Part shown: positions 1 to 31,371 of the stretch, in pieces
Numbering within the stretch: the stretch's first letter is position 1
Layout of the letters: the number at the start of each line of letters is the position of its first letter
NCBI GenBank assembly: GCA_008632985.1
Contig: QPGO01000009.1
Coordinates: 744,001-807,528 of the forward strand
Reading direction: 5' to 3'
Origin: Psammoneis japonica
Taxonomy: Eukaryota
DNA length: 63,528 nt
Made by a program: the position numbers and the translations under genes
Notes under the pieces: model-generated
Database searches by the model: none
The model's input: the letters and a program-made list of their open reading frames with translations, nothing else
What the model was told of the DNA's origin: nothing

Positions 1-898
1 TGACTGGCGCAATCACCGCTGCAAGTCCCAGGCGAAACTGCTCTGTCGGAATAGAGCGAACTGCTGCGAGTGCTTGGTATGGTTGTTGCGCTGCAGGTGG
101 TCGGTCGTCGACTTCGCCGTCCCGACGGTCATCACACCTCGGCGCACTGCGGCGGCGTTTTTGAATGCTATTGCTGGGACAAGAGATTCTAGGAATGCCT
201 TGCATAATTTCTTGGATGTAGTACTCCACCTCGTAATGCTTGACAAATTTCGTCGCCCTTTTCAAATAATGCATGTGTTAGGCGGGAATACCCCCGGTCG
301 TGACGAACATTTACAGAGAGAGCCTACGTTTCTTTGCCATTTTCTGCTTTCTTAACGGTCCGCCTCAGCGCCTCAACATAGTAATGGCCTATTTCTTCTT
401 CAACGTGAGCAATCAAGGCGGCCTCGAACGATGAACGACAACAAAATGAAATCATTTTGGAGGACACGGCAGATGGCAGGAACACAATGGTCCAACCAAT
501 TTTACACGAAGATCTTTTGCTGTCACTGGAAGCATCAGTAGGTTGAATGGTGAATGTGAATGTTTGGCATCCCAGAGGCGTCCATTTACTGGATTCCATC
601 ATTTCTACGCCAGCATTCACCGAGTAATACGGCTCCTCATCGATTTGTGTAATTGTTTTGCGCAAAACAATTTCACCACCTCGAAAGGTGCGCCGTTCAT
701 CCCAACAAGCCCCAACCGTCGATGGCTCACCCCTCACAAACTCGACAGATAGCAGGTGCGGAACAAACTCAGGTGCGGAAGTTATGTCTCAGAACGTGGC
801 TCTTGCCATCTCTGGGGTAACATCTGGAAATTCAAAAGATCCGCTAACGATGAATTCTCGACATGTTGAAGCGAGAGGTCCCATTGTAGTTTCGAGTA
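1..898. repeat. Segmental duplication copy 1 (matches 16127-17024; runs off the window start)
   Basis: Colinear high-identity match at a constant offset of 16126 (tgactggcgcaatc... to ...cccattgtagtttcgagta). Confidence 0.95.
324..884 (-). pseudogene. SRPBCC/polyketide cyclase-like protein, copy with a premature stop
   Basis: Same 561-nt span as 16450-17010, but the Arg codon CGA is TGA (plus-strand tca at 789-791). The ORF track therefore recovers only the downstream 137 aa. Confidence 0.8.
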
Positions 899-1368
899 AA
901 TTTGCTCGTTAATTTGCAGCTGTTCCAAACGACAATAGTTCTGCTGCTTTTTGGTGCTGCAGTTTGGCAAAGCGATTGCAGCAGTGACCCATGTAAAGCA
1001 TCAAGCACCAATTGGTCCGTTAAGCAAGCTGTCCATGTCCAGATGAACAACGAAGGCTGCGTGCAATTTTTTCTAGAGGGATGTCGTGCGTACTGTAGGG
1101 CCCTAGATCAGCGATCAGCAGAACACGTCCGGGTCGTCACGGTCCGAAAATTCCATGTGCATGAACATGAACCAGGTGTGATAGTTAGAATTACTGAGAG
1201 CAAGACAAGACCTGAATGGTTACCAACGTGTTGTCTTCATCGTCGCCGACTGTACGGTAGTCTAGCTAGCTAGTCTTACCTTGTGGTTGACAACTTCTCG
1301 CGCATGCAGCGCAGTGCGATGAAACCCAGTCCGACCCCGCCACGCCCCTCCTCGCAAAACAACTCGTG

Positions 1369-1747
1369 TGCACTATGCTCGAAGAACGAGTGTAAACGAA
1401 AGTAGAATGAAGTTCAAAAGGTGAAAATTATGAGAATTATTTCTGCGCAATCACTTTGGGTTTCTCCGAACGGGTTCTCAACAGCCTAAACCTTTTGCAC
1501 TGCTCCTACAGACAAAAGGCCTTTCGGAGAACATGATCGTGACGACAGATTGTCCGGGTGCGATTGACATTGACACATGAGATGTCAACATCATCGTGCG
1601 ATCGCATTTGCAATTCTCGACATCCGATCACTTCTGTGTGACTGATCTGTACTTCGTACGAACCCACGATTGACGTGCGATTGAAACATGCTTTTGTTTG
1701 ATGTGTAGATGTGTGTGTGCAATGCGTGCATGACAACGCACATTGCA
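1369..1747 (-). repeat. 3' LTR of the gypsy element
   Basis: Aligns without gaps to 6166-6544; 32 differences by my count, all transitions. Confidence 0.95.
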
Positions 1748-1757
1748 TTCGCCTCCC
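1748..1757 (-). other. Polypurine tract (GGGAGGCGAA on the minus strand)
   Basis: Purine-rich run directly abutting the 3' LTR. Confidence 0.8.
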
Positions 1758-1773
1758 TAATTGCACATTAGAG

Positions 1774-4700
1774 TCAGTCGTTAAACGGTGTTGTTCGACG
1801 AACATTGACAGTGTCAACAACGTTGCCGCGTTTGATCTGCACTGTGCCATCAGTGTGTGCCGTTGTTGTTGCACACGGTCCAACATGGGGCTGTTCTAAT
1901 TTTTGCGAGTCTTTCTCGAGCAGCATCTTTTCTCCCACTCTGTGCGTGCAAGGAGTGCGTCGAGCATTCTCTCGAGCGTCATTTTTATTTGTGATTTCTT
2001 GTTTTCGCTGCTGGATTGATTTCCAGTCTGCGACATGTTGGACGTTGAATGTCATGTTTCCATTGAAGACCAGTTGTCCTGGTGCAGCTTGCGCAGTGGC
2101 ATGACACGGCAGAACGTGCCGCAAACGCTGCCGCTGACAGCACTCCAGCGAAAGGATCCTCAGCATCTAGAGGTGTGTGTTGCAAATCAAATGCACGGAG
2201 CATGTTCCCCAGCACTTGATGCACATGTTCAACAATTGCGTTTGCTTGTGGATTTCGTACAGTTGCAGGCTTGACTTCAATGCCACAATCATCTTGCACC
2301 ATTTCTCTAAATTGGTGTCCGATGAACTCACTTCCACTGTCACATGTAATTGACGATGGCCAAGGACATCCACTCAACCATGTTCGTTCTAGTGGTCCAG
2401 CTGCAGTTGTGGACTCCTCTTTGGGATTTCCACAACTTCAAACCATCCAGTTGCTGGATCGATCATAGTCAAACATTTCAGGACTGGGGGTTTTTTCTTT
2501 CCCTTACGACGTATTTTGTATGGCCCAATGAGGTCCACACATAGTCGTTCCCATGGTGCGGATTCTGCGCACTTAGGAGGTAAATGTCCATATTTCTTGT
2601 GTTTCTTTTTGAATTTTTGGCACGTCTCACATCTCGACACGTATTTTCGTATGTCTTCACGTAAGGTGGACCACCATAGGTGTTGTGAGATTGTTTCTTC
2701 TGTTCGATTTATGCCAGGGTGAAGAAGGTACGTATGATGCCAATCTATCACTGCCTTTTGTAACGTCCTCGGGACGACAATTTTATCCTTATGACATATG
2801 AGCAACCGGTCTCGCTCGCCTCCACGAAAAGTCTTCGTATGAAACGTCTTATTTGACAATTGGGAGAGAATGTCTTTGTCCCGTTTTTGTTCATAATCAA
2901 GAACTTTGTAATTTAACGGAAAGACATTGTCGTAGGATTTTGGTAGGACCTTTTCAGCTAGCTCTTCTGTGCTGAGGGTTTCCATAGGTTCTATTTTCTT
3001 CATAGTAAGTCGGCTAATCGCATCTGCGACAATATTTGCCTTGCCCTCAAGGTATATTATTTTGGGACTGTATTCTTCTATTATTAGACGCCAACGCATG
3101 ACTCTGTCCGTTGTGAAATTTTTGTGTGTGAGATTTTTATGATCCGTATATATATTTATCTGTTGGCCAAACAGTATATTGCGGAACTCTTTTAACGTCT
3201 CCACTATGGACAATAGTTCTTTTTCTGTTGTAGTATAACGCGTTTGCGCTCCATTCAGCTTGCGGCTGTAGAAGGCAATTGGTCGGTTTTTCTGAGTAAT
3301 AACCGCCCCCAATTGAGAATTACTAGCATCGGTATATATCTCAAAGGGTATATTAAAATTCGGGTATGATAATAGTATATCTTTGGAGATGATGCGCTTC
3401 ATATTTTCGAAGGCTTTTTGTTCTGTTTCGGTCCATTGCCACTTTACTTGGGTAGAAGTGAGTTTGGCTAAAGGAGCTAAAACATGAGATCGTCGAGGCC
3501 ACATGTCTCGATAGTAGTTGATCATACCGATAAAGCGTCGCAATTCCTTGCGAGTTTTGGGAGTTGCGATCGCGCGAATCGCTTCTACTTTTTTTGGAAT
3601 CGGACTGATGCCCTTGCGGGTGATGTGAAAGCCTAGATAGTCTACTTCGGGTTTAGCGAAAAAGGACTTCTCGGCGTTGACCTTCAATCCGGCTTGTTCT
3701 AGGCGTAAGAACACCGTTTCAAGCTTCTTGAGGTGGTCTTGAAAATCACCTTTTGCAAGACACAACACATCGTCAACATGAGTTCTGACGAACTCCAGAC
3801 CTGCCATGAGCTCACTCATGTGCTCTTGGAAAATATCTGGAGCTCCACAGATTCCCATCGGGAGTCTACAGTGCTCATGTTTGCCCCAAGGCATGACGAT
3901 CGTGCACAAGCGACGTGCATGCGGCGTCAATTCGATGTGATGGCATCCCATGTTTAAATCTAGGGACGTTGCATACATGAAGCCTTCGAGCTTCTGTAGC
4001 ATATCCTGAATATTGGGTGGAGGAAACGGAGTACGAATTAACCTCTTATTTAGCTCACGAAAGTCGGACAAGAACCGAACTCTACCATTTTTCTTGGGTT
4101 GAACAAAGGTTGGAGCCGCCCATTCAGAACAATTTGTTTTTCTTGAGACTTTCAACTTGCACAGTCTTTCAACCTCCTTACGAGTAGTCGCCTCCAAGGC
4201 TTGTGGTGCGGGAAATGGTTTGGCATGATACGGACTCACGCCCGATTTCAACTTTAAATCCACCGGTTTCCCGGTCCATTTGCCCAGAGAACCATCGAAA
4301 AGGTTTTCAAATCTTTTTAAGAGGAAGTTCAGCTGCTTCTGCTCTTCAGGAGTTAGATGAGCAGCTGCTGCGGTCACATCATTGAGGTTTGCAGCGTGAC
4401 AGTCTGAGTCAAGGATCCGATTGACCCTGTCATTAAGACCAATCACTGCATGAGATTCCTCAACATGATCGGCAATCAACTTAAAAACATCGGCATCGAA
4501 GAGTGTGTCAACATTCTTCATGGGAGTAGTTGCATCTTCCCATCTAATCTCTTCATTCGAGAAGTCCAATGTCATCCCAAGACTTGACATTAAGTCGCGT
4601 CCCATGATCACATCATAACGACTTGAAGAAGAAGGGGAGTTGTCAACACATGCCGTTGTTTCAATCATCTTGTGTTTGTCAAATTCGGGCAAGGAGAATT

Positions 4701-4974
4701 GGATCTTACATCGACTGTCAGTCGTGAAGAGCCCTCCTTTGGTTTCCCAGAGTTTGGTGGCGGATGCTTTTGTTCTGAGTTTCCGCGTGAATTTGCGCAA
4801 AATTATGGTTGATGATGTTCCGCTGTCGAGGAGAACGCGCAGAGGCTTATTTTTCGCCTTGCCTGATGAAGCATTCATACAGGCGACGACTGCTGGACTA
4901 GTGTGAATTACTTTGGCCCTTTTTCTGGGCTTCCTAATGTCCAGTGGAGCGTGAGACTCCTCTTGCGGTGCAAG
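1774..4974 (-). pseudogene. pol: Gypsy pol (protease, RT, RNase H, integrase), disabled
   Basis: LLDSG protease; RT motifs LDLNMG, LPMG and HVDD (for Y-x-DD); RNase H YTDAS and YTDHKNL; integrase HHCC plus DLIGP, CDSGSEF and NPQANAIVE. Frameshifts near 2410 and 2100. Confidence 0.93.
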
Positions 4975-6129
4975 TCATTCCTCAGAATCACTGCGCGTCA
5001 TTTTTTCAAACTGACAATTTTCCTCGTCAAGGGTGTCAGAATCATAATTTTTGCTCTTGTGTTTTTTGTCATTGTTCGAAGAACTCGCTTTGAGCATTTT
5101 TTGAACTGCTTGGATCGCCACAGCATTCAACTCTTCTTTGCGAGCGGCGTTGTCATTGTCGCGACGAGACCACGTGCGATTGCCATTTGAACGGCGCCGT
5201 TTCGGGTCGGGTTCATAGTTCCCACGGCGTTCTTTCGCAAGTCTTTTGATCGACCAGCACTTGTCCGTGTTGTGAGTGGATTTCTCGCACAAAATGCACC
5301 ACTTCTCGGACTGAGATTTTTCGGTGCCATGTTGGTGACCATTTTTGGAACCACGTTGGGAACCACTCTTGGCTTTTGATGCAGCACTGCCACTGCCATC
5401 AGCCTTGGCATGAATGCCATCAAATGTGTCTTCTGCGACCTCCAGGCGCTCCAAGAACTCAACCAACTCGTCACAGGCATGTTTCAAAATTTCGAAACCC
5501 TGGACGGTCGACTGACGCTGCCACTTTCGAGGTGCAAGGTTGAAGAGGATGTCCTTGAGCTCGTCGTCCTCGATCTTCTGTTCCTTCCCAAAGGGAGGAT
5601 AGAACTTGAGGTCTTCGTTGACTTCCTGGACCCAAGCAGCAATTTCGCGTACTTTCATGGACTCCGGCTTCTTGAGATCACGACGCAAATGACGTTTCTG
5701 CACCGAAAGTGCGTTCTTGGGAAACACATGCCTCGTGAGATGTTGTGGGCATTTCTCGAAGCTTCCTTCCGCAGATTCGTCTTCAAGGTTCGCTGCCGCA
5801 TTCTCGAAGGCACGTAGAGCATCTCCTTGGAGCAACATGCGCATGAGACGAAACTCATCAGATTGCTTCCTGACATTCTGGCCCACTGGAAGTTGATCGT
5901 AGCTCTTGAGAAATTCGATGAACTTGGGGACACCTTGTTTCTTGTGGCACTCAACATTGATGGTGCAGGTGCGGCTGTCCTTCTTCTCGGGATGAAAACG
6001 TTGCTCCATCTTGAGGTGCTGGCTCGGTTTGAGGCTCTTCGGCTCGGAGTTCGATTCCAGCGGTTGAGGGACGATTTTCTCCTGCCTTGACGAAGTCTTG
6101 GCATTGGTTGCATGAGGTGAAAGCTTCAT
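4975..6129 (-). CDS. gag: Gypsy gag
   Basis: Open frame upstream of pol inside the LTRs; zinc knuckle CILCEKSTHNTDKC; ATG at 6129. Confidence 0.88.
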   Translation of the reverse strand: MKLSPHATNAKTSSRQEKIVPQPLESNSEPKSLKPSQHLKMEQRFHPEKKDSRTCTINVECHKKQGVPKFIEFLKSYDQLPVGQNVRKQSDEFRLMRMLLQGDALRAFENAAANLEDESAEGSFEKCPQHLTRHVFPKNALSVQKRHLRRDLKKPESMKVREIAAWVQEVNEDLKFYPPFGKEQKIEDDELKDILFNLAPRKWQRQSTVQGFEILKHACDELVEFLERLEVAEDTFDGIHAKADGSGSAASKAKSGSQRGSKNGHQHGTEKSQSEKWCILCEKSTHNTDKCWSIKRLAKERRGNYEPDPKRRRSNGNRTWSRRDNDNAARKEELNAVAIQAVQKMLKASSSNNDKKHKSKNYDSDTLDEENCQFEKMTRSDSEE

Positions 6130-6165
6130 CTTGAACTTGTTGCCTTCTGTGGTGTGTGTGCACAA

Positions 6166-6544
6166 TGCACTGTGCTTGAAGAACGAGTGCAAACGAAAGT
6201 AGAATGAAGTTCAAAAGGTGAAAATTATGAGAATTATTTCTGCGCAATCACTTTGGGTTTCTCCGAACGGGTTCTCAACAGCCTAAACCTTTTGCACTGC
6301 TCCTGCAGACAAAAGGCCTTTCGGAGAATGTGATCGTGACGACAGATTGTCCGGGTGCGATTGACATTGACACACAAGATGTCAACATCATCGTACGATC
6401 GCATTTGCGATTCTCGACATCCGATCACTTCTGTGTGACTGATCTGTACTTCGTACGAACCCACGATTGACGTACGATTGAAGTGTGCTTTTATTTGACA
6501 CATGGACACACATGTGCAACACGCACATGACAACGCATGTTGCA
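6166..6544 (-). repeat. 5' LTR of the gypsy element
   Basis: Direct repeat of 1369-1747. Confidence 0.95.
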
Positions 6545-6549
6545 CGTGA

Positions 6550-9500
6550 CAACAGTTAGACACCGTCGGCATTTTGCGATGATGGCGCCACCCTTTGCCA
6601 CACTTTCTGTCGCTGCAATCATGCAGTGCGGTCAATTAGACCCACATGTCTGACAGGTGATGTGGTTTTGATTGAAGCAAGTGCGTTGAAGATGAAGTCC
6701 AAGTCAAAAAGACTTGCTGAGTTTCCCACTTGCCATTGTGTTGTGAGAGAGACGGCTGCTGTGTTGTCATCATCACGACTCGCTCAGAGGAGCTAAATTC
6801 AGCCATGTCATTGCTGGACCAATCAATTTGTTGGATGCAGACACAAAAAGTTGGGATTTGGTGATTTGAAAACTCCTCTGGGTGGACGCTCCTTCTTTTG
6901 CGTTTGATTGTTCCAACAACATGCCCTTTCTTTGCCGGCGGTGGGTTGCAAATGACTGCTGAGTTGAGTGCCATTGGTGAATCAATGACATTGCCATGAC
7001 TCATTCACCACTTGAGTGCACAGAGGCAAGCATGGCATCTGCATTAGAGAATCTGAGGAATGGGAAGCAAAGCCAGAAGACAAAAGTCAGGTGAAAGCTG
7101 GGCACGTGAAAAAAACATTGTCTTTGCTGTGTTTTTGTTTGGGTGCTGCTGACACTCCCTCTCCAATGAAGAAAGAGCACCAATGATGTGATCACAAGAA
7201 TCAGTGACATCTTCAGCTCAATGTCAACAGCAAGGATTTTTAGGATGCAGCACCACCGCTGGCAAGAGGACAATGTTTGCGCTGCAAATGCAGCAATGTG
7301 GCAAAACAAAAGTCTGTTGATGACAAGCATTCTGGCCAATCATTCAACAATGCTGCCTTCATTCTCAGATGCAATGCCTCAAAGGCTCAGCCTGAGCTTC
7401 TGCTGTCTTCTTTGCTTTGTGGTGCCATTGTGAGTTGAGAGCAAATCACCCCATCTGAGTCACCCTCTGCTGACAGACAGAGAAGTTGAAAAGTGTTTGC
7501 CCTCCTGTGTGCCACAAGTTCAATCTCTTTGTCACTCACATCCAACTTTGCTTTCCAGCATGTCTGCAACACAACAGTTTGCTCAACAGACTGTGTTGCC
7601 CAGCTCAAGATCCCACTCATGAGATGGATGAGTTGTGTGCTCAATTTCTCTTGCAAGTGCAAGCCATTTGTGGCCCTCCCATCACCTCAAACATCCATGC
7701 TGCAATGCCAAATGTTCAATGTTCAAACCACATTTACCAGCTTTGTTTTCATTCACCAGCTTTGGTCAGCAAAAAATGACCATGGCCACAATGCCAGTGC
7801 TGCTGAACAAAAGCAAACACTGCATGTGACACAAAAAAGCTGCTGGATGGGATGTCAAAATGACAGAGACAGAGAACAAATGTGAGTGAAAGCACAAATG
7901 GAAACAATTTGAGCACGCCAAAAGCAAAAAGTGGGGGAGTCAAAGATGGTGTTCACCGCCATTGTCAGATGTGATCCCAGCATGCTTTGCCATTTTTTTT
8001 CATTGTTTTTTTTTCACAGGAGGGGCAGGAGTTGGAAAGCACCCTAAATTTCTGGACTGAGGTTGAGGGTCCAAGGTCTGCTGATGCTGCAAGCTGGGGT
8101 TGGGCTCTCACTTTCTGATGCTGGTGGAGGCTGCCAGTGCTCTCTGGCAGTGAGCAGAGAGACAGACTCCACCTGGCACAGCACTGTGCTCAAATGCATC
8201 AGCAGGCATGTGTTTCCCAGTTGATGACAGCTGATGGACCAACCGACAACTGCTTTTGTCACACACTTCTTCTGTCATCAGTTTGTTTGCTGAGAATTGC
8301 TGGGCATGACTGGGCATGACTGAGCACAACCAATGCTTGCCACTTCCTGCATGTGGTCAACACCTGCCAGTTCACACTGCATGTGAAGTGCAAGAGCATG
8401 TGAAGCAAAATGACCCGCTCACAACAAAATCTGAGACATCAATTTCTTGACATTCATTTCACACTCACATTGCACTGCCATGCCTGTGACACAGCAACAT
8501 CCATCAGCTCACCATGAATGTGAGCTCCACATTTTGTGCCCTCTCACAAATGGAGCAACTGCATCTCACAAAAAAAATTGTGTGGGATCCCTGGAAAAAA
8601 GCAAAGCATTGTGCTGCTGGAGAGCACAGCAAAAAAGAAACATGCAGCTCAAGCTGAGCACACAAAGGTCACACAGTGAGAAGAAGCTTCCCTCTGCCAA
8701 CACTGTGGTGCTTTCAGAAAATTTGCTTTTCTTGTTGTTTGTTGTGCTGCAGAAAAAGATTGAGAGCCAAAGGAGCTGCCCAGAGAGCTTTTGCATGGGG
8801 GTGGGGCAGAGATTTGCTTGACTGGGTTGTTGTTGATGCTCTCACCCTCTTGTTGACATGCTCAGCCACCACAAGCTTTCTCAGAACATTCTTTGTGGTG
8901 CTGAGAGGCAGAAAGCAAACCAGCCAGCCAGAATTGCACTGTGCCAGAGAGTGCTTCAACAACCACTGGGCTTTTCAGCAAAGACATGACTTTGCACATG
9001 CATCACCAACAAGGCAACTCAAGTGCACAGTGCTCTGTCCACCACAAAGACATGTTGAAAAATTCTAATTTGACAAGCAGTGTGGTGGCGAAGTGGGTTG
9101 TTGCACTCTGGTGGTGCATGGCAGCAAAAATGTTCTTGAGAGCACTGCCCATTGGCACAGGCAGCTCCAGGAGGGCCTCACACAACTTCTTGGCTTTGGT
9201 TCTCTGCCTCATGACACCTTGCCAGCCTCTCAAACTGAAATTGTGCAAGGTGGAAACCCACATTGCAGGCAGAGCCTGTGCATCTTTTTGCCATCTTGTG
9301 TTTTCTCAGCAGTCTGCCTCAGTGCCTCTGTGCAGTGATGGCCCATTTTTTCTTCAACATGAGAGCAATCAAGGTGGCCTCAAAAGACAAATGACAACAA
9401 CATGAGGTCCCTTTGGAGAGCTTGTCTGATGACAGAAATGCACTGTCCCGGCTGGATTTTTCAACAGGCGGAGCTGTGAATGCAAGCATTTGGCTCCACA

Positions 9501-12500
9501 GTGGCAAGCACTTGCCAGATTTAATCACTTCTTTTCTGCTCAAGGACTGACAGAGCAGCACATTTTCCCTTCCATTTGTGCAGTTGTTTTGTGCTCTGCT
9601 GCCTCCTTGCCAAAAAAGATGTGTCTTTCATCCCAACATGCTCTGACTGTGGACTCAGTTTTTTTGCCAAATTACATTTTTTTGCTGTCGCAGCCCTGCC
9701 ATCAAGAATGGTGGGCAGGTCACTGTGTGATGCATGCACAAAGCAGCACACTCACTGACTCAACAAGCAGTCATGGCTCCATTTCAGCATGAGTTTGCAA
9801 ATGCTGCAGGTGGAAGCCACCAAACCACATCACTGTGGCAACTTTGTGGTCACCATTTTCTCAAAAGCTTCGCCTTCAAGTGCTGCAGCAATCAACAGCA
9901 CATTGCATCTCTGCCCCAACTCACATGTGATGGCACCAAATGTTGACTTGTGCATTTCAGTTGTTGATTTCTGTGCAATCAAATGACTTCAATGCACAGC
10001 TGGGCATGCCCACACATGACACAAATTGTGTGCCATTGAAATGTGTCAGTGTCATCATGGTGTTGATGGAGCATTTTGCATTTGTGGCTGCAACTGTCAT
10101 TGGGCAGTTCACAAACTTTTGGTGTTTGTGTGTGACCTTTGACACACAACAAGTGGAAAATGAGAGTTGACAGAGGCCCCCCATCCATCATGGACTTGCA
10201 GCTTGCTGTTTTCACCAAGGTGAAGCACAGTTGAATTGAAAAAAAACAACATGCAAATCACATGCTGTTGGGAAAATTTTTAAGCTGAAAACAGCAGCAA
10301 ACAACCCCTCTCAATGCACAAATGCTGACATTTTGATTGCTGCCAGCAAAAAAATGATGTTTGGCAAAAAAAAATGCAGAGTGGGGACTCTGGGTGGCTG
10401 GCTCCCCACAAATTTAACTGAGACAACATGCAGACAAACTCTGGTGTGGGTGCAATGCAGTGGCTCTTGCTGTCTCTGGGAGCAACGTCTGGATGTCCAA
10501 GAGATTTTCCAAAGATTAAGTGGTGGTGTGGGCTGTCAAAAAGGTTGTGCCACAACTTTGAGCAGAGTTGCTTGAGCTGCTTTTTGGTGGTTTGGCATGA
10601 AATGAGGTAGAGCTTTGGTCTGTGGTGGTGATGCTGTGCAGTCCAAAGTCTGCATGCCACACCAAGAGGAAACACTCTGCCCTCACTTCTTGCCACACCA
10701 ACCAAGGGCTTGCAAGGCTGCTGTCAGGGTGCAAACACAAGCTGTGCAGAGCATGTGCTGCTGTGCATGGCTGCAAGTCCTCAAGCAATTTTGACTGCAC
10801 AAACAATGTGCAACATGGCACAAATTGGATGTGTGCCAAGAGCAAAAAGTTTGGCTTTTGTTGTGGTGTGTGTGCAGCCTGTGTGCACAAGCTCTGCAAG
10901 ACATCAGAGGAACTTTTGCTCATGTGCAGTGTTGACATTGAGAGTTCATCATGTCAGAAGCCTGAAGTGCTCTGCTTCTACAAAACCCAGCACAAACTGC
11001 ATTGGTGCTCACACTGTGCATTGCAGCAGCCTCTCATGCAGGATTGCATCAGTGCTTGCACATTCTGACAAACTCACAAATCCTTGGCACCCACCCTGCC
11101 ACGCAGCCATCAACCATTGTCACCAAGTTTTGTGCTCAGTGTTTGTCAAACAATGGCTGGGTGTAGATTTTCAGAGTGTCGCAGCTCTTCTCTGGAGGGA
11201 TGGTTTGGCTGCCTTTTGGTCTCACTGGAGGGTTGCACTGCTCACATGGGGGGCAAAATCTCTCTTCACCCCACAGGATTTTGCGCAGCTTCTTCTGTGT
11301 GAGTCAAAGAGGAGAGAAGACAGACACAAACTCCTGGAGGAGGAGAAAGAGCCAGAGGGGGGGGGGGGGGATTCTCATCCACACTTGGCCCTGGTGACAC
11401 AAAAACTGACACACAAACTCACATCACAGCAGCAATGACAGCAAAACCAAGTAAAACTGTGAGCTGGCAATGAAAACACCGCCTCCTGGTCTGGCCATGT
11501 GGCTGGCTTTGCTGCTGAAGGGAGGAAATGTTGCCATGCACACTCCATTGGCAACACACCAGTGCTTGTGCTGAGCACTGAGCAAGAGAAATTCTAAAAT
11601 GCTGCCTGTCAAGGCATGCCAGCATCTTTTTAGCTCTGCAGCTGTCTCTGCAGCCTGAGCAGGGGGGCTTCTTTGATGTTGCGGTGACCTGGCTTGCTTT
11701 TTTTTAGACAGTCTGCTGCCAACTTCTCTGGCAGACTGTCTGTGTGTTTGGCAAAACCCAAGATCATCAAGCAGTGGTGAGCACATCTCACACAGCAAAC
11801 AACAACTGGAGCACAGGCAGGTCTGTTGTGCAATGAGAGTGACAGCGGCATGTGCAGCACACCTTTCTGCATTTGCTGCCTGGCTCTGTTTTGCATTTTT
11901 ACAATGATGTGGTCAACATGTTGCAGCTCTTGTTGCAGCAACTTCATGATCTGTTGTGGCATTTGTTGCACTGAAAGCAAACTGGGGAACAGCCACCCAG
12001 CTGCAGCTAAAAACACCAGCGGGGCTCTCCACACTCAAGGGTTGCCAGCACTCTCAGCCAAAGCTGGAGGACTGTGCTGTTGTGTGAACACCATTTTGGG
12101 AGCGGGGGTGAGTGTTGGCAAAAGGGGCTCATTCACAAAATCTGTTTGGGAGCCCCATCTCATCCTGTCATCTCTTGAGGCTTGGTTTCATGATCTGCAC
12201 TGGTTTGTAAGTTGGGTGTCTGCATCATGCTTCATCTGCTGTGGAGAACTCAGTTGGTCAGACATTGGCTGCGCTGCCAGTTGTTCAATGGTCAATTTTT
12301 TGCCCTTTGGAGCACCTTTCAGGAGCTGCATCTTAGAGAGACTGGCCTTCTGGAACAACACAAAAAGGAAAACTCTCCTCCCCTGGTTTGGGCAGTGTGG
12401 GTCAGATCATGCATTTGGACTTCATGGTGGGAAGTGCGGGAAGAGCACAACAAGGCAATGCGCATTGCATGGTGTGGACTCACTGAAATCATCCCAGCCA

Positions 12501-12790
12501 ATGTCGGTGGACAGAAGCTGAACTTGCAGCCATCCATGACAAATGCCAAGAACACCTGGCAAAGGACAGAGAGGCTTTGTCAGATTTCCTTTTGAAGATG
12601 CCATGTCCAGCTCTGCATCCAGGGCTCAGAATTGGGTCACCATGGTCAAACCACATGATCCAAAGGAAAGCATCAAGAAAGTGAAGAGCTCCACACTTCA
12701 CAGCACTCCCACAGTCACCAGCTGCGGATTCGCTCGCAAGAAGGTTCAAGCTACCCGCATCACCTAAACAGTTTGTCCACAACATTCACG
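6550..12790. other. Heavily decayed repeat DNA, depleted of both TpA and CpG; original identity not recognisable
   Basis: Only about 26 TpA in about 6.2 kb by eye, few CpG, strong TG/CA excess; sharp return to normal composition near 12.8 kb. Confidence 0.8.
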
Positions 12791-13429
12791 TGTGTTTTGA
12801 AATGAAAAAGAGATAGCCAGAATACTACAACATGTCCGTCTTGCTGACTGACAACCGCCTCTTACGGTAGAAGTGCGCATGTGTGAGCTGGTAGTAGTAC
12901 TAAGGTGTTGTAAAGAATTGCAAGCGGACGTTTTAGGAACTCTGTTTTCTATTCCTTTTATGTGAGACGTGTTTTTATTGTCTCTCTAGAGAGGTATGAT
13001 TTGTATTTTTTCATGGGAGCCTTGTAAAATTATTGCTCCCACCGAATGCTCTATTCTCTTCCGTCAATGTTTCAACAACAAGCTTGACTTCCGAAGCGAC
13101 ACGACTTACATGATAGCAATGCGAGCCTGAATTAGAGTGTGGTCAATGAATTCTCTTTCGTCAATGTTGCCTCTCTGTTTCAACGTGACGTCCGAAACGG
13201 CCTCGGCTTACAGTACTGCGAGCCTGAATTCTTGAGCAGTAAAAGCGAACCGACATGGTGCAAACGTCAGAGAAAGCGCGTTCTCTATTAGATTGCAATG
13301 TTCTTGGACCGACTGTGTCATCAATATTCCGAGTACTAGCCTTCATATGGTCTGACATGGTCACCGGATGTCATAACAAACACCTCTTCGGAAGGACTTG
13401 TTGGTGGAACAGGTGGGGGCATCTGGTGA

Positions 13430-14050
13430 GTTTTAGCTACTGCTTCGAGACTACCACACAGGTAGCCCTACTAGGCATCCCCACGACTGACGTAATGCCC
13501 CCCTTGGTGAAGACGTTGGCGAGTGTTGCGCTACTGCTTCGTGACTATCGGTAAAGGCTAAATGCCCGGTCCGCCGATGCCCTATTAGGTAGCCTCGTCT
13601 AACGTCCACCTTGCCTTTGCGGCAAAATTCGTTCTTCTCCCAACCAATGGATATGCGTGCGAGTTGTTGTGCCACTGCTTCGTGACTATGAATAATTGAC
13701 GAGAGGCTGAAGCCTTCACATCTACTCATGCCCTAATAGGTGGCCCCGCAATCTAACATTCCGGACTGTGAATTCGTGTGCGAGTTCGCGTTACTGCTTC
13801 GAGTCAGGATAATTGACAAGAGGCCGTCTCGGGTTGCGAGACTGAGTGCCACGTCTATCCAAGTCCTAATGAGTAACCCCGCTTCCACGTTCACGCCGCC
13901 CCATGGCAGCAAAAGCCACAACAAGTCAAGTACGAGATTTTGCTACTGCTTCGGGTAGAGCAATTGACAAGAGGCCGTCTCTTATTCCAACGTTGTTGGG
14001 AGACTGAGTGCCACGTCTGCTCAATCCTAATGGGTAGCCTCGCATTGCTG
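13430..14050 (-). pseudogene. Degenerate tandem repeats, possibly an ankyrin-repeat gene relic
   Basis: Five recurrences of actgcttcg at about 90-150 bp spacing, with shared aattgac(a/g)agaggc and ctgagtgccacgtct blocks. Minus-strand fragments read HEAVAQ and LLLPWGGVNVEA. Confidence 0.4.
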
Positions 14051-16126
14051 CTGTACTTTTCAAAACGTCCTTCTTGGTGAATCCAATCCCAAACCACAAT
14101 CAGTACATCGCCTCGTCTTGAAGATCCGATCCCAGACCGCCGTGCCGCAACCTAGACACGAGCACCTCAACGTATCCGCTTCTTGCCCACAACCACGGTG
14201 AATGATAATTCTGTCTCTGTGTACGTACAAGAAGGCAAGAGCGAGTTGAGTGGATGAAATACAAAAGAAAAAGGAACAACACGATACACGATCACGACAA
14301 GAACACACGTACCTTACTCTGCAACGACAAGGCCGGCAGCAAGCAGAACGCCCATGGCCACTGCAACGAGCGCCATGGTCAAAAGAGAAACACAATCAAC
14401 TCCTCCATTTTACTGCCGTGTTGTTTGAGTTGATTGTCAGAATTATGAGCGAATCGAGAGCGAGCGGAAATTCAGCATCGGATTGTTCGTGTACCAGAAG
14501 CACGTAAAATCCACGGAGCCTCAGTCCTCGGTCTTCCACGACTCGTGTGCTTTCGGTGCCTGGCAGGTTTCGACAACTTATCCTCTAGTGGGATCAGATA
14601 TTTTCAAAAATGTCGGAACCGGTACTGGCATGCCGAATCTTCCAAAAACGAGCGGCAAATCGATCGCGAGCGTCATGGTGAAGTTTCTCGCTTCGTTATT
14701 CTTTGATTTGATTGTGTACGTGTTGTTGTGTGGTCGCGCGTTGGTTAGTCCTCAGATCTTTGCGGACGCACATCAGACGTAGAATTTCGAACATTTCAAC
14801 ATTTATGAGCATGAATGTTATTTTGTCTTGATATCTTCCGGATGTTCCATTTCGCGGATGACAAAAATAGACGTTGCTGCATCGATCTTTTTTACCGAGC
14901 TGTACCATTGGGAAAGAGACCAGTGGTCCCGTGCAAGCAGATTTCCATCTGGAAGGAGGTCCGCGGCGCTGTGTGTTCGGGGATGGAGCCTACGACACGA
15001 TTTGTCTTTGTTTCTAGTTCCTTCTACTTCAAGATCGTACTTGGCCTAAAACAGCTCTTGTCTATCTTTTGTGTTGTAAAAGATCTTTTTTCAACGGGAT
15101 CTCTAGTGATAAGAAAAACTAACAAAGATTACAGTAGACAAGTAGTGTTAGCAGCTGCTATGGCATCGGATGCTTTTAGGCAATGTTCTTGAATCATTTT
15201 GTAGTTGCAATCGCCTGCCTGGTATGGAATGCTAGATACGCTCGCAGTTGTTTTCTGCTGGTAATGTCTTATCAGAGAGTATGCACATAGTCTATCTAGA
15301 GATGTCTCAGGACAACCTCATGCGCCAACCTCGCAAGTTGAGTGACTTCCTTATCAAAATTCGTCTTGACTCGAAGAAAACCGTTTGGTACTATACTGCA
15401 AAGGCGATTGCATCAACATCCAACCAAAAAAACATACTGCAACAGTCTCATCCCATCAAAGTAATAGGCAAACGATGCGACCACATTTGTCATAAAAACG
15501 ATATCCACTGATTCTTCCTTGTCCAAGGCCGAGAGAACCATTCCCACAATACAACAAACTTGCCACAGGGCTCCTCCACCCGTGCCATTTAGACTATAAT
15601 ATCAATGCTCATATTTTCAAAAAGTGCACGATAAAAGCCACATAGTGCACTTTGAATACCGTGGATAGAGAGGTAGGTCCGCTCGACGATGTCGGATCCT
15701 CCGTGATCTTACGAAGATCGGCATCATTGATGGCTCGAACGGTATTCTTCTACCCCGAATCTTGCCTCTTGAAAGAAGGATGTCAGCAAATCGTAAAATT
15801 ACCGGGCTAATCACGCAGAGACAGAGACCATCAAAAGTCAACGCAGAAGTTTGAGATTGTCGTACGCATTCGAAACCTCGCCCATAAGTGTGTTCATCGT
15901 ATCCAGAAATATGCAAACAAGGAAGCTATGCGACTCGTCAATAAGGTCCTCTTCGAACAAAGTATTCGTGACCTTTGTCACTCTTCCCGCTGACTGGTAT
16001 GTTTTGGAGACACTCTGTCGGGTACGAATGGCTGAGCCGAGGGTACTGAGAAGGGTAAGAGGGATCTGCGTTCTGTGGCCCATGGAATCAACTGCTCTCA
16101 CCAGACCATAACGTTCGCTCGCAACT

Positions 16127-17024
16127 TGACTGGCGCAATCACCGCTGCAAGTCCCAGGCGAAACTGCTCTGTCGGAATAGAGCGAACTGCTGCGAGTGCT
16201 TGGTATGGTTGTTGCGCTGCAGGTGGTCGGTCGTCGACTTCGCCGTCCCGACGGTTATTACACCTCGGCACACTGCGGCGGCATTTTTGAATGCCGTTGT
16301 TGGGACAAGAGATTCTAGGAATGCCTTGCATAATTCCTTGGATGTAGTACTCCACCTCGTAACTCTTGACAAATTTCGTCGCCCTTTTCAAATCATGCAT
16401 GTGTTAGGCGGGAATACCCCCGGTCGTGACGAACATTTACAGAGAGAGCCTACGTTTCTTCGCCATTTTCTGCTTTCTTAACGGTCCGCCTCAGCGCCTC
16501 GACATAGTAATAGCCTATTTCTTCTTCAACGTGAGAAATCAAGGCGGCCTCGAACGATGAACGACAACAACATGAAATCACTTTAGAGGACACGTCTGAT
16601 GGCAGAAACACAATGGTCCAACCAATTTTACACGAAGATCTTTTGCTGTCACCAGATTTCTCAACAGGCTGAATTGTGAATGTGAATGTTTGGCTCCACA
16701 ACGGCGTCCACTTGCTGGATTCCATCATTTCTACGCCAGCATTCACCGAGTAGTGCGGCTCCTCATCGATTTGTGTGATTGTTTTGCGCTCCACTACCTC
16801 CCCGCCACGAAAGATGCGTCTTTCATCCCAGCACGCTCCAACTGCGGATGGCTCGCCCCTCACAAATTCAACCGAGACAAGGTGTGGAACAAACTCTGGT
16901 GCGGATGTAATGTCTCGGAACGTGGCTCTTGCCATCTCTGGAGAAACATCTGGGAATTCAAAAGATCCGCTAACGATGATTTCGCGGCATTTTGAAGCAA
17001 GAGGTCCCATTGTAGTTTCGAGTA
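16127..17024. repeat. Segmental duplication copy 2 (matches 1-898)
   Basis: Direct alignment to the window start. Confidence 0.95.
16450..17010 (-). CDS. SRPBCC/polyketide cyclase-dehydrase (START-like) family protein, 186 aa
   Basis: Intact ORF; pattern FRDITSAPEFVPHLVSVEFV...GACWDERRIF resembles the SRPBCC fold; many differences from copy 1 are synonymous. Confidence 0.7.
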   Translation of the reverse strand: MGPLASKCREIIVSGSFEFPDVSPEMARATFRDITSAPEFVPHLVSVEFVRGEPSAVGACWDERRIFRGGEVVERKTITQIDEEPHYSVNAGVEMMESSKWTPLWSQTFTFTIQPVEKSGDSKRSSCKIGWTIVFLPSDVSSKVISCCCRSSFEAALISHVEEEIGYYYVEALRRTVKKAENGEET

Positions 17025-17295
17025 GAGTTGCTTGAGCTGCAATTGGTGGTTTGGCGAAAGATAAGGCTTGCTGTGGTGACTGGTGACGCTGCTGTGGTCT
17101 GCATCACCATCGCAACAAACAATAACTTTCCCTGCCTCCGCCGCCGCGATCGCCGCGACCGACCGCCACCCATAACCACCCAACCGTCGTGCGTCCCCGT
17201 GGAATTGAATTGATCGATTCGAACGAGTGGGCAGATTTTCAGAGTGACATTCACATGGGGACAAAACATCTCTTCACCCGACCAGGATTTGTGGG

Positions 17296-17298
<3 letters not shown>

Positions 17299-17354
<56 letters not shown>
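17299..17354. repeat. (AG)28 microsatellite
   Basis: Perfect dinucleotide run. Confidence 0.98.
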
Positions 17355-17357
<3 letters not shown>

Positions 17358-17399
17358 TGAGTGGGAGAAAGGCAAAAGAGCAAGCAGGGTGGACGTGAA

Positions 17400-20260
17400 A
17401 AGTGAAAAGAGCCGGGGGCTCTCCACACTTTTCACGACCTGGCACACTTGGCCACAATGCAAACTCATCTGGCAGCAACAAAAACAAACCAGATGGTGTT
17501 GGAAATGAAAATCACACCTCCTGGAAACTGGCTCTGTGTGGCTCTGACTCCTCTGCTGGCATCCTTGCACTCCACTGGTGACACAGAGCATCAAGCTTCA
17601 TGATGCATGCACGCCCAAGAGAGCTGCAAGGAGACAAAAGAAGATGCAGCAGAAGACTTCAAAAATTTGGGAGCGTTGGGCAAGAGAAATTCCAACACCA
17701 CCCACTGAGGCTTTTTCAATGGATTGTGCACCAGGCAAGAACTGGCAGGGGTTTTGAAGTGCGGGGGCAGTGAGCTGGGGCTGAAGGTTGGATGAACAGC
17801 GGGATGAATGTCCAGCAAGGGATTCAGAGACCAAGAAACTGAGGCTTTGCAGGCCCCATTGGGAGGGTGTGGCAGCTGGGTCAATGGACAAGCCCATCAA
17901 AACACCAAAAGAGAATTCCACATGGGAAAAGCCATGCACAGTTGTGGGCAGCATGAGAGGATGGGTGCCAGAAAGAAGATTCCGCTGCCCAAGGAGGGGG
18001 AAGTGGTGTGGAGAAAGAATCATGGGCTTGTGTTGGTCTGGTCCAGAGCAATGATGTGCAAAGGAGCCAGGTTGGCAGAGAATGAGAATGAACTGGGCAC
18101 TTGCCTGAGGGTGACTTGGAGTGATCAAGTCCATGCACAAACAGGAGAGAGCAAGCGCCAAAGCCAGCAATGCCTTGCGCCAAAGTGTGCTCAAGACATT
18201 GTGAGAGATTCTGAGCCAGTCTCAGAATTGAAGCTGTGGTGGAAGTCAGAGGATTTTGAGAGGTCAACTAAACTCTGTGGAGCTGCCAATGATTTCCATC
18301 ACAAACAGACTGGAAGACATGATGTCTTCAGTCATGAGGTTCAGCAGTTTGAAGGGAGAATGAGGGGCGCTCCAGCTTCATTGAGAGAGGAGGTCTCTGC
18401 AGTCAAGCTGCACTTGGTTTTGTGGTTTCTGCATGACTTCCATGCAGTGCTTGCATGGGGTGCTTGGGCAAAAGAGTCAAGGGCAGTGGTTTGGGAATGG
18501 TGGTGTTGATCACAAAAGGCAGGCATGGGTGTTGTGGGAGACGTGGTTGTTCAAACAGGCATGAGGTGTGCGCCAATGTCTGCAGGTTGTTTCAAAGGTG
18601 AGTGAGGAAGGGGCAAGAAATGGCAGCACTGGATTTGTCAAAAGATGCTGGCAGGTGAAGCTTCCTCTGCAACAACAGGCAAAAGAGGTCAGTGGGAGAC
18701 ATTGACTTGCAGAGAGTTTGCGAGGAAAAAATGAAGTGGGGGGCTTGTTGCATGTGGAGATGGAAGGGGCAGGAGAGCCACAAATTGTTGGAATTGAGCA
18801 CAGTGGAGAGCACAGGAGAGTTTGTGCAATGGCACACTCTTGATGAAGGGGTGACAGAAGTGGAGACAGGGTGTCAAAAAGTGGAAGCAGTGTGTGGTGT
18901 TGACACAAGAATTTTTGAACACCCAACAGAGGTAAAAAGACACGCTTGTGGAGAGCACATGCACAGAAGGGTGGGAGGGCAAAAGGCTCACATGCACTGG
19001 CGGAAAAGCCATGGGTTGCAAATCTGAGTGAGCAAACAAGCTCTGAGTGATCAGGAGTGTGACAGTGCTGACACCAGAGACAGAGCAGCAGCTGATGCCA
19101 ACAGCTGGTGCTGGGGTGTGTGAGGTAGAACCAGAAGTGTGCAGGGTGAAAGGGGGCAGGGCCAGGCAGCAAGCTGTTGAAGAAAAGTGTTGCAGTGTCA
19201 TTGGATGGGGCATGGTCATCCTGAAGTGGGAAGGCTGTGCTGTGCTGGGACAGGGCAACAGCCAGAAGGGTTTTCTGGGTCAAAGTTGCAGCAAACATTG
19301 GGTGTTGTTAAGAGCCAGTGTGTGTCAAGCATGGCATGTTCTTGGTCTGGGTGTCTTGGAGGTGGGATGAAAGCTGATCCAAGCCAGTTCAAAAGGAACA
19401 GGCTTTTTGAAAAAGAAAGTGCCAGCAAAGTCAGCATTGCAGTGGTCTGACCCAGAAATCAAAGGCCAATTCTGTGGTCCGTGGCCTCCACACTGCAGTG
19501 TGAGCAGTCGGAGAAATTCACTTGTGTTTTTTCACCTTCTTCCAGCCAGCCATGCTCAGCTAGAGAGTGGAGTTGCCAGAGCCTCTCCTGCTGGAAGCAC
19601 CTCAAAGAATTGCATGTTGTGCCATTCACAGCACAGACCCTGTCCATCTGGCCAAAAACAGGGGGAGCCTTTCTTTCATGTGAGCTGCAGCAAAAGCTTG
19701 GGTCTTCTTTTTGTGGACAGTCTGCTCCTGACTTCTTTGGTGGAGACTGTGTGTTTGGCAAAAATCTGAGACCATCATCCAGCAGTGGCATGTGAGCACA
19801 TCTTGAGCAACAAGAAACAACAGCTGCAGGAACAGGCAAATCTAACACATGAGGAGAGTGCGGCACATGCAATGCATTTCTGCCTTTGCTGGTTCTGCTT
19901 TGTGTTTCCCCACAATGATGTGGACAAAACACATTGTGGCTCTTGTTGTTGCAGCGGCATCATGACCACCTTTGATCTGTGTTGCACAGAGCAAGTTGGG
20001 GAAAAGCCACATGGCCACAATTCAAACTGCCAGCCAGACCCACTGTGCTGAAGTGTCACCAGCCATCTTTCAAAAACAGAGGACTGCAGTCTTGAGCAAG
20101 TGCCATGTTGGGAGTGGAAATCTGGTCAGGAGTGCCACACCCAAAATGCCTTTTGTTGAATGTGCCCAATGCTGTGACTGATGCAAGGCAGGTCTCAGTT
20201 TCCTCTCCCAGACAACCACCTGGAACAATGAAGCTGCAATTGCTCTCATTGCAGTGGCTG
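17400..20260 (-). mobile_element. Decayed repeat domain depleted of TpA and CpG (probable retroelement relic)
   Basis: Same composition and strand asymmetry (purine-rich plus strand) as the CRE-like relic at 34.8-37.6 kb; no intact domain. Confidence 0.45.
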
Positions 20261-20909
20261 TTTCTAGGCCGACATAAGCTTGGAATGCGACAAGCAGAGA
20301 TCGGTGTACATGTGATTAGCTAGAGCAACCTGATTGCCAATCAAGTTCCTCCTGCCTCTCGTACATTCAACATCTATTTGATTGATCGCCCTCTTGTCGC
20401 ATGGTGAAAAGGCTAGTCTACTGTTTAGAAAATGTCGGGCAGTGTCTGCATCGACGGTCGTTTTTCGTCCCATGCTACAGTGCCCTAGGCCCCTACCCAT
20501 CTCCTTGCTCCACTCGTTCGATGGCTGTGCCACGGCGAGAGCAAAAAACGAAAATCATAGTAGCTCGTCGTTCAAGCATTGTAAGTTTTCCTTGTTTGCA
20601 TTCTAGGCCCTTGTCTGCCAGTCCCATTAGCTAGAGAAGGGATTTGATGCTATGCTTAAGAGAAGAATATGCGAATTCGAAAGCTATTGTAGGGCTACGA
20701 CATCTCTCTAATTATCATTATTTCTCGTTGAGACTTCTTTGATTTTCTTCAAGTACAATCATTCAGTCATGCGTTTCCTCCCCATTCATCCCAAATCATT
20801 GATTTCAAGTCTTAGACTTCATACGCAACCACATCTTGAGGAATAAACTGTGGAGTTGGTGGCTGCATCGGAAGTAGAGCCGATTCTTCTTCTTCTTCGT
20901 GTTGCTGTT

Positions 20910-26469: not shown

Positions 26470-27060
26470 ATTTCCTGATCCTTCCCACCGAGTTCCTCAA
26501 GTAGCTCGTCGATCTTTTTCGTCTGTTCATTCTCGCGATCTTTCTCATGTAGTTTCTCGTTTAGCACTCCAAGTTCCTATCTTCTCATTTAGAGCCCCGC
26601 GTAGCTCCTCAATGTCATGCTCTAACCTGCCGAGTTGCTTGGTGATCTCTTCAGTTGTCTTGCTCTTTTCACGGCGTTGCTCTTCAAGCCTACTGTATAA
26701 TCTTTGTCGTCGCCCTTGTTTTCTACCAATGCAAGATACACGGCCTTCCTGAATTCTTGTTTGACGTGCTCCATGCGACACTTCACGCATTGCCTAGCCT
26801 TGCGAATTGATAATTCTCCAAGCATGTCGGTGTTCGCATCGCCTCCTTGGCTCTTGTATTCTTTCACCTTTTCGAGCTCTGTATCGTGAAATACCTTTCA
26901 GAGATTGTTGATCCACATCTTGATCCACAACTCTTGCCACATTTCGGTTGAACATTCCAGCCCCAATGCCGGCTTCAAGTGAACAAATTGTCTGTAACCG
27001 AACAGGCCAAGCATGTTTTCTTTTGCCTTTGCCGTCTCTATTTTCGTCCTCTGTTCTTTA
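26470..27060 (-). pseudogene. 5'-truncated, frameshifted coiled-coil gene fragment
   Basis: Protein-like pieces (KIETAKAKENMLGLFGYRQF..., KEYKSQGG..., LGRLEHDIEEL...) in shifting frames; cut off where the 27061 repeat starts. Confidence 0.4.
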
Positions 27061-31370: not shown

Positions 31371-31371
31371 T

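Follow-up and report, generated by a model that had tools for sequence, protein, structure and literature searches.

Probable TpA-specific A:T>G:C hypermutation of transposon-centred chromosome domains in Psammoneis japonica

Repeat-induced point mutation (RIP) of ascomycete fungi converts C:G to T:A at CpA and creates TpA; it is triggered by homology, relies on cytosine methyltransferases of the RID/DIM-2 type at a premeiotic stage, mutates both copies of a duplicated sequence, and lowers GC content. Deamination of 5-methylcytosine (5mC) turns CG into TG or CA, and the long terminal repeats (LTRs) of a retrotransposon are identical at insertion. Among the adenosine deaminases, ADAT/TadA enzymes prefer a 5′ U, as in U33-A34-C35 of tRNA, with UAC being favored by TadA, while the preferred triplet of ADAR is TAG. 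An oxidized thymine such as 5-formyluracil (5fU) mispairs with G. To our knowledge, cytosine is the only base at which repeats are known to undergo context-specific hypermutation (RIP, APOBEC, and 5mC decay), and we know of no described eukaryotic genome-defence or chromatin pathway with comparable chemistry on adenine or thymine. The present study concerns a 63,528-nucleotide stretch of Psammoneis japonica (contig QPGO01000009.1, positions 744,001 to 807,528; hereafter the window), in which a Ty3/Gypsy retrotransposon and other transposon-centred DNA have lost TpA. From this window, we establish the polarity, sequence context, strand symmetry, and domain structure of the change and its spread into adjacent duplicated DNA. 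We consider that these are best explained by a hypermutation that is real, heritable, and specific to TpA, changes A:T to G:C, and acts on silenced domains, with a probability of about 0.8.

Like RIP, the process is dinucleotide specific and restricted to transitions, saturates transposon DNA, leaves islands of skewed composition, and leaks into adjacent DNA. However, RIP makes TpA, whereas the A:T>G:C change in the window destroys it, leaving observed/expected (O/E) ratios of 0.02 to 0.10. RIP mutates both duplicates, whereas only one of two copies of a 5.4-kb duplication is mutated here (66 versus 2 events). RIP lowers GC content, whereas it stays at 45 to 55% in the affected DNA. Furthermore, cytosine-methyltransferase chemistry cannot act on A:T pairs. 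The first-pass annotation, made by a model from the letters alone, had called the pattern a mirror image of RIP; the loss of TA by A:T>G:C change agrees with that description, but a repeat-induced trigger does not, as one duplicate was spared. Both LTRs of the Ty3/Gypsy element are mutated, which would also be expected if the whole element was targeted. The decay of methylated CpG is a closer likeness, with a self-complementary pyrimidine-purine (YpR) target, TG/CA products, action on both strands, and confinement to silenced repeats. It differs in that the target in the window is TpA and the change outpaces the loss of CpG from the same DNA. By analogy, the process most resembles 5mC decay moved to the other self-complementary YpR step, running beside real CpG decay.

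Differences between the LTRs of a Ty3/Gypsy element

The order of reverse transcriptase (RT), RNase H, and integrase, the TG..CA ends of the LTRs, and a target-site duplication of 4 bp (CGTG, 1365 to 1368 on the left and 6545 to 6548 on the right) identify the carrier as a Ty3/Gypsy LTR retrotransposon. It reads on the minus strand, with the 5′ LTR at 6166 to 6544 and the 3′ LTR, its direct repeat, at 1369 to 1747; a purine-rich tract, read by eye on the minus strand, adjoins 1748. A repeat finder and direct alignment gave a length of 379 bp for each LTR. The alignment contains 32 differences, of which 32 are transitions, and no indels. Since neither transversions nor indels separate its LTRs, the insertion is recent. 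In a two-letter purine/pyrimidine recoding, the LTRs are 100% identical. LTR divergence would therefore be unusable for dating insertions in such genomes, as 32 differences have accumulated at zero transversions.

Twenty-two of the differing positions form 11 adjacent TG/CA doublets; the others are TA/TG (6), TA/CA (1), CG/TG (1), CG/CA (1), and a single AA/AG difference adjoining a doublet. YpR steps hold 31 of the 32 differences. The first-pass counts, namely 379 bp, 32 transitions without indels, 11 doublets, seven TA and two CG differences, and one AA/AG, were all reproduced by alignment, as were its about 22 CpGs and 6 TpAs intact in both LTRs (22 and 6). As YpR steps make up 54.9% of LTR positions, 31 or more of 32 differences would fall within them by chance with P = 1.3e-7. 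Similarly, 32/32 transitions has P = 2.7e-8, given the transition share of an ordinary repeat pair (47/81; 47 transitions and 34 transversions between 1 to 906 and 16127 to 17032). Random placement yielded a mean of 0.72 adjacent YpR doublets and never more than 6 in 100,000 trials, whereas the LTRs have 11. Counted as events, at least 29 fell on 24 visible TA sites in the two copies (29/48 site-copies changed) versus 2 on 24 CpG sites (2/48), with one change outside these classes. Of the TAs that each LTR ancestrally had, at least 24 in number, at least 14 to 15 would have been lost since integration, and each TG/CA doublet is probably a TA site that changed on one strand in one LTR and on the other strand in its partner.

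Without an outgroup, a TG/CA doublet could derive from TA or CG. Under ordinary 5mC decay, the doublets and the TG/CA excess would trace back to methylated CpG that was deaminated on opposite strands, with TA uninvolved. A doublet formally allows such an ancestor, and CG>TG/CA change does occur in the same domains. However, 22 CpGs are kept in both LTRs, and only 2 are single-hit. Moreover, as described below, Tyr rather than Arg is changed in pol and in a Copia-like open reading frame (ORF), 66 TAs were lost one-sidedly in the duplication, and CpG O/E stays at 0.8 to 1.0 where TA alone is depleted. A CG ancestor thus fails for the TA-class changes and holds for a separate, slower component in old domains; as an account of the whole pattern, we regard 5mC decay as highly improbable.

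Polarity of the change

The pol ORF (2389 to 4878, minus strand, 829 aa) encodes RT, RNase H, and an integrase zinc finger, as found by Pfam (RVT_1 at residues 261 to 419, RT_RNaseH at 508 to 603, and Integrase_H2C2 at 702 to 758) and by alignment. In an alignment with 47 homologues, 338 columns were conserved in at least 85%, and the window copy deviates at 21 of them. Seven of the deviant columns are Tyr codons (TAY) that became Cys (TGT, TGC) or His (CAT, CAC), one of them encoding the Tyr of the YxDD motif (residue 367). The conserved Tyr changed to Cys or His in 7/19 cases, versus deviations at 14/319 other columns (Fisher p = 4e-5). No conserved Arg became Cys, His, Gln, or Trp, and one Leu became TCA. 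The integrase core and C-terminus, split across two frames at 1748 to 2388 (minus strand) and located by tblastn, carry more Tyr>Cys and Tyr>His changes in pairwise tblastn. A second element, a Copia-like one on the plus strand (about 59643 to 63527), has a 1276-codon open frame that runs past the window end. All four conserved Tyr of this ORF are changed (three to TGC), as against 0 of 10 conserved Arg, and two Ile became ACA and ATG. In the gag alignment, which held 3 of 7 long homologues, conserved Tyr were too few for counting.

The duplication (27053 to 32406 and 39249 to 44688) gives the same direction. Copy 1, in which TA and CG content is ordinary, was taken as the unmutated reference. 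Over the first 2.5 kb, TA in copy 1 corresponds to TG at 32 sites and CA at 34 in copy 2, and 2 sites show the reverse; the TAs of this stretch number 100 in copy 1 and 22 in copy 2. These losses fall at 39249 to 41784, whose twin at 27053 to 29520 kept its TAs, and they occur only where copy 2 sits in a TA-free domain. In the other 2.9 kb, outside the domain, TA differences number 3 versus 6. Of 89 aligned TA sites, 62 became TG or CA, 21 are still TA, 1 became CG, and 5 changed otherwise. Of the 5 sites at which an outgroup paralogue (47074 to 47583) is informative, 4 are TA and 1 agrees with copy 2; the paralogue has TA also at the sole TG/CA doublet of that stretch. In a three-copy repeat, one copy (9263 to 9654) lies in TA-depleted DNA and two are ordinary (311 to 719 and 16437 to 16849). 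At 11 sites with TA in both ordinary copies, the depleted copy has CA 7 times, TG 4 times, and TA never; at 25 sites with CG in both, it has TG 10 times, CA 6 times, another state 9 times, and CG never. TG<>CA flips separate it from the ordinary copies at 11/66 sites.

The conserved Tyr codons, the duplication, the outgroup paralogue, and the three-copy repeat agree, and they support TA as the probable ancestral state. The first-pass proposals that the doublets had been TA, and that a fast A:T>G:C process acts at TpA on both strands, are thus borne out on all four counts. In the reverse scenario, a truly RIP-like polarity, TG/CA would have become TA (C>T at CpA) in the TA-bearing copies, and the TA-poor copies would be original. 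Among the family variants listed (see below), 5 sites with TA in the window copy and TG/CA in the family majority agree with it. However, the invariant Tyr codons, including that of YxDD, represent the ancestral state, and the outgroup has TA at 4 sites versus 1. Furthermore, TA-bearing copies stand at the ordinary TA level of the window, TA-poor ones lie in domains that reach past the duplicated DNA, and the TA-poor duplicate is the copy with a broken second ORF. We give next to no weight to this scenario.

TA deserts and the nature of the process

A 1-kb dinucleotide map with two-state segmentation called seven TA deserts of 0.9 to 8 kb, with TpA O/E of 0.02 to 0.1. The first, at 4938 to 6194, covers the gag end of the Gypsy element, including a gag-like ORF of 411 codons (4978 to 6210, minus strand); it has 6 TA among 287 YpR steps and intact CpG. 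The next, at 6496 to 12747 (24 TA among 1542 YpR steps), is also a CpG desert from 6942 (25 CG among 1417). The desert at 17177 to 20259 has 6 TA among 689 YpR steps and includes a CpG desert (17440 to 20265), and that at 33355 to 41340 has 29 TA among 1839, with CpG depleted at 33400 to 38921 only. A TA-only desert at 53575 to 56285 (13 TA among 659 YpR steps) and the two deserts of the Copia-like element (59643 to 61394 and 62675 to 63527) have intact CpG. The CpG deserts (6942 to 12723, 17440 to 20265, and 33400 to 38921) are nested in TA deserts and share their outer edge. TA makes up 0.9 to 2.7% of YpR steps in deserts versus 12 to 20% in most ordinary segments between them, with 7.4% in the short ordinary segment 61399 to 62673. 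Inside deserts, TG and CA O/E rise up to 1.5 to 2.1, and CpG O/E in TA-only deserts is 0.8 to 1.0.

A map of TpA and CpG O/E against transposons had been proposed in the first-pass annotation for the whole genome; run across the window, the two ratios yield these seven deserts, three of them with CpG loss. That annotation had placed the process on the element itself. The element is indeed affected, but confinement to it, or to transposons, does not hold, as the domains include neighboring duplicated DNA that is not transposon-like. Outside the deserts, TpA O/E is about 0.45 to 0.9 and CpG O/E about 1.0; the same bias may act in weaker form throughout the genome. Across the whole window, TpA O/E is 0.40. 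Such a low value is found in many genomes and could be taken to favor selection or compositional constraint against TpA over mutation bias. Nevertheless, the losses destroy catalytic residues in dead elements, remove 75 to 100% of sites within sharp domains, and strike one of two duplicate copies only, so that we consider selection extremely improbable.

The desert at 33355 to 41340 contains a relic retroelement and extends into copy 2 of the duplication. Its right end, 38921 to 41340, is TA-only and includes the start of that copy. TA losses reach about 41.8 kb and stop inside the duplicated segment, and hence only part of copy 2 is converted. The relic is a 517-codon ORF (35616 to 37166, minus strand) with similarity to proteins of about 1200 aa that carry an RT (best E 2.7e-67; all 5 of 5 matches checked contain RVT_1). 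Conserved Arg became His, Cys, or Gln at 7 of 11 columns. Its 517 residues include no Tyr, 6.8% Cys, and 6.0% His. This is the oldest desert. The relic region also has a plus-strand purine excess (34001 to 38000, GC skew +0.30, AT skew +0.24), the sense strand of the ORF being pyrimidine-rich; transitions cannot create such a purine/pyrimidine skew.

TA is lost first and fast, and CG later. In the duplication domain, about 75% of TA but 21% of CG sites were lost, and NCG>NTG change occurred at 24/240 sites in the domain versus 4/302 outside. With copy 1 as the ancestor, A>G in the domain depends on the 5′ base, at 66/176 after T, 21/352 after C, 13/396 after A, and 8/291 after G (2.7 to 6% after bases other than T). 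The corresponding values outside are 3/188, 10/393, 7/456, and 3/437. By 3′ base, the order is TAC (23/41), TAT (21/49), TAA (13/46), and TAG (9/40). The order of TG and CA outcomes along the duplication is random (35 runs, 33 expected; runs test z = 0.5). The ratio of Tyr>Cys to Tyr>His changes is 2:5 in pol, and for the integrase a count by eye gave about 4:2. The two strands are equivalent, because TG and CA outcomes interleave like independent events and both Tyr>Cys and Tyr>His are frequent. Outcome by flanking bases (YTAY, TG 13 and CA 3; RTAR, TG 6 and CA 8) was borderline (Fisher p = 0.057) and was not used as evidence. As only one copy of the duplication is affected, the process is position-dependent and not repeat-induced.

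Taken together, the hypermutation would act at the DNA level, heritably and by position, on transposon-centred chromosome domains that we infer to be silenced, methylated chromatin. There, TpA would become TpG or CpA by a single A:T>G:C transition, the strand being chosen independently at each site, at a rate per site roughly 6 to 15 times that of CpG>TpG/CpA decay in the same DNA. Young domains would have lost TpA and kept CpG. As CpG decay runs more slowly in the same domains, old ones would come to lack both dinucleotides, with only TG and CA left among YpR steps. TA and CG would both be unstable, so that a TG mutating to either resolves at random to TG or CA; such intermediates would explain the TG<>CA flips between desert and ordinary copies and those against the family majority (see below).

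Editing during retrotransposition offers another route, with an adenine deaminase acting on RNA or single-stranded cDNA so that copies arrive mutated. The three identified affected elements (Gypsy, Copia-like, and the RT relic) are retroelements. By hand count, 20 of the 29 inferred LTR events, read in sense orientation, fit this route if the 3′ LTR was edited on the minus strand and the 5′ LTR on plus-strand strong-stop DNA; sense-strand T>C to A>G is also 5:2 among the pol Tyr changes. However, the other 9 of 29 LTR events contradict it, Tyr>Cys about equals Tyr>His once the integrase is added, 39249 to 41784 lost 66 TAs in place while its collinear twin kept them, and the deserts extend beyond element ends. 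We consider it quite improbable, and a strict form, with cDNA-stage editing as the sole cause of the LTR pattern (20 events fit, 9 do not), was rejected. APOBEC3 hypermutates retroelement cDNA, and one report describes deaminase-type, context-specific scars in LTR retrotransposons (PMC4866542). That activity is G>A, strand-specific, and pre-integration, in contrast to the symmetric, post-integration A:T>G:C change described here. An APOBEC-like editor at the cDNA stage was rejected on the symmetric outcomes and the in-place loss in the collinear duplication.

Because TpA is removed through A:T>G:C transitions, and faster than CpG decays, the chemistry should involve adenine or thymine. Enzymatic adenine deamination of TadA/ADAT type at TpA is our tentative first choice. 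Like ADAR, ADAT, and TadA activity, the change makes A read as G and has a strong requirement for 5′ T/U. The best context, TAC (23/41), accords with the TadA/ADAT preference for T/U at −1 and C at +1, and the order TAC>TAT>TAA>TAG resembles the UAC preference of TadA. These enzymes, in contrast, act on RNA, whereas in the window it is genomic DNA that is altered, on either strand, and DNA of non-retro origin too. ADAR-type RNA hyperediting fixed by reverse transcription was rejected, as Tyr>Cys and Tyr>His both occur, the LTRs differ, and TAG is the lowest context (9/40).

Oxidation of thymine at TpA to 5-hydroxymethyluracil (5hmU) or 5fU by a TET/JBP-type enzyme, with the product mispairing with G, is a somewhat less likely chemistry and the second candidate. 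In the dinoflagellate system, passages of one report describe 5hmU made by a TET/JBP enzyme, with a preference for replacing the T of TA and TC dinucleotides, and an overlap between the repeat elements that carry 5hmU and those that carry 5mC (PMC11572971). Those passages offer a precedent for a TpA-directed mark together with 5mC on silenced repeats; they differ in concerning another lineage and, as far as they go, a mark without mutational consequence. Error-prone repair synthesis is improbable, and some other chemistry takes up the remaining probability. Of the two mechanisms put forward at first pass, a TadA/ADAT-like deaminase is the candidate placed first here, and Pol eta-type mutagenesis (WA>WG) fits poorly and was rejected, since AA is not hot (13/396, near GA with 8/291 and far from TA with 66/176). 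A dedicated enzyme system linked to defence or heterochromatin, recruited together with CpG methylation to silenced domains and rewriting A:T to G:C at TpA, has somewhat short of even odds in our estimate; candidates for its enzyme would be a DNA adenine deaminase and a thymine oxidase with a G-pairing product.

Hypermutation of this kind seems not to have been described before. In a search of full-text literature, with subscription journals and supplements outside it, TpA>TpG/CpA hypermutation was nowhere described, and two papers on diatom transposons did not describe it either, as judged by term look-ups (10.1101/2025.10.24.684338; PMC2806351). The first-pass remark that no description in diatoms was known thus stands within the reach of that search. 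If true, it would be the first natural A:T>G:C DNA hypermutation pathway, and, if enzyme-driven, it would provide a natural A>G (or T>C) DNA editor with dinucleotide specificity. Transposons would be permanently disabled, through catalytic Tyr>Cys/His changes, without a GC drop or TAA/TAG stops. The resulting "YpR-homogenized" islands would be a readable record of domain age, and maps of TA and CG O/E would show at low cost where silent domains lie and how old they are relative to one another. Since no TAA or TAG stop is possible without TA, gene finders would overcall very long false ORFs, for example those of 1276 and 517 codons. Open frames in the dead hypermutated elements span 1276 (59700 to 63527), 517 (35616 to 37166), and 861 codons (2392 to 4974).

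Family copies, read support, and other features

The Gypsy family is of high copy number. Contigs of one public run (X1), aligned to 1 to 9000 at 80% likeness, give a summed depth of about 6000 to 17600 over the element versus about 90 to 370 in the flanks, a ratio that suggests roughly 50 to 100 copies. They vary at 1145 transition versus 273 transversion places and carry single-base indels at about 2108 to 2110 and 2417 to 2419 relative to the window copy. Among the 40 of 1439 variant places listed, each LTR has two (1454/6251 and 1544/6341), neither of them at a doublet. In a 5.8-billion-protein collection, the closest relatives of the element have 53 to 61% identity and fragments up to 72%; same-family copies were not found there at near or shorter lengths (best 61% and 72%). 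A metagenome scan found 5 related Gypsy loci at 46 to 65% identity with TpA O/E of 0.53 to 0.95, and no TA desert was found in these five. Three related Gypsy fragments from sediment metagenomes (L001, L002, and L005) have CpG O/E of 0.24 to 0.28 and ordinary TpA of 0.53 to 0.59, which is the usual signature of methylated transposons without TA loss.

Several observations weigh against hypermutation at ancestral TpA. In the LTRs, 8 of 11 doublets are TG in the copy at 1369 and CA in that at 6166, with seven of the same orientation in a row at 1702 to 1728; no such strand coherence appears in the duplication. Any single LTR doublet stays formally compatible with a CG ancestor, the polarity being established at other sites. 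Among the places listed, the window copy has TA at 2259, 3139, 4185, 4527, and 5045, where nearly all family depth has TG or CA. If the family majority state is ancestral, these five are changes in the opposite direction, and they fit the favored reading only if the majority lineage had lost those TAs earlier. Protein homologues at these sites, where usable, show synonymous changes or variable columns. Doublets at 4464-5, 4649-50, and 5746-7, also among the places listed, need two steps relative to the family majority. Furthermore, all evidence comes from this one 63.5-kb window, and X1 may be the sample behind its assembly, and thus may not be independent support.

The depth of single-copy 31-mers in X1 is about 70 to 100, which requires the reads to be accurate. 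X1 contains 0.61 of the sampled 31-mers of the element, and one X1 contig (depth 74) covers 7747 to 8201, 455 bp of desert free of TA and CG, with 0 differences. This bears on the suggestion that TA loss is a sequencing or assembly artefact, raised at first pass as a basecalling one, in which a modified base at TpA (or 5mC at CpG) was misread and the true DNA keeps TA and CG. The technology behind the assembly is unspecified, and the deserts are plausibly heavily modified DNA. However, one desert stretch is matched exactly by that contig, with the reservation that X1 may have polished the assembly and that its independence is uncertain. Strand-wise misreading also predicts all-TG or all-CA blocks, whereas the outcomes interleave randomly (z = 0.5), and amino-acid changes and frameshifts indicate long-standing decay. 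An artefact is, in our opinion, very unlikely. A second X1 contig (depth 99) differs from the window at 8433 to 8907, also in desert, by 7 letters, including a CA>TG doublet at 8661 to 8662. It derives from either another allele or a paralogue, and in the former case YpR flips would be polymorphic.

The Copia-like ORF has weak Pfam matches to gag_pre-integrase and Pol_BBD; homologues of the element carry the name Fragilaria crotonensis, and one protein-atlas cluster is labelled Bacillariophyta. Pfam on 37 other desert ORFs gave nothing above noise, a protein-atlas search of 53469 to 54443, in the TA-only desert at 53575 to 56285, gave no usable match, and Rfam on the whole window gave 0 matches. 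Recoding the window into purines and pyrimidines raised the identities of known pairs and brought out no further progenitor of the large deserts. Up to three copies of a repeated unit of about 4 kb are present (1 to 906, 16127 to 17032, 9263 to 9654, 10386 to 10608, 11681 to 12109, and 19690 to 20121), and the Gypsy element appears to have inserted in one copy of it, near the border between its ordinary and desert parts. In the 5.4-kb duplication, an ORF with a TIR domain and ankyrin repeats (31375 to 33276, minus strand) has a twin at about 43629 to 44770 that is split into shorter frames. Finally, a 533-codon frame on the minus strand (23742 to 25340), which has no Pfam match, contains two diverged tandem repeats of about 190 and 156 bp (23748 to 24133 and 24324 to 24740).

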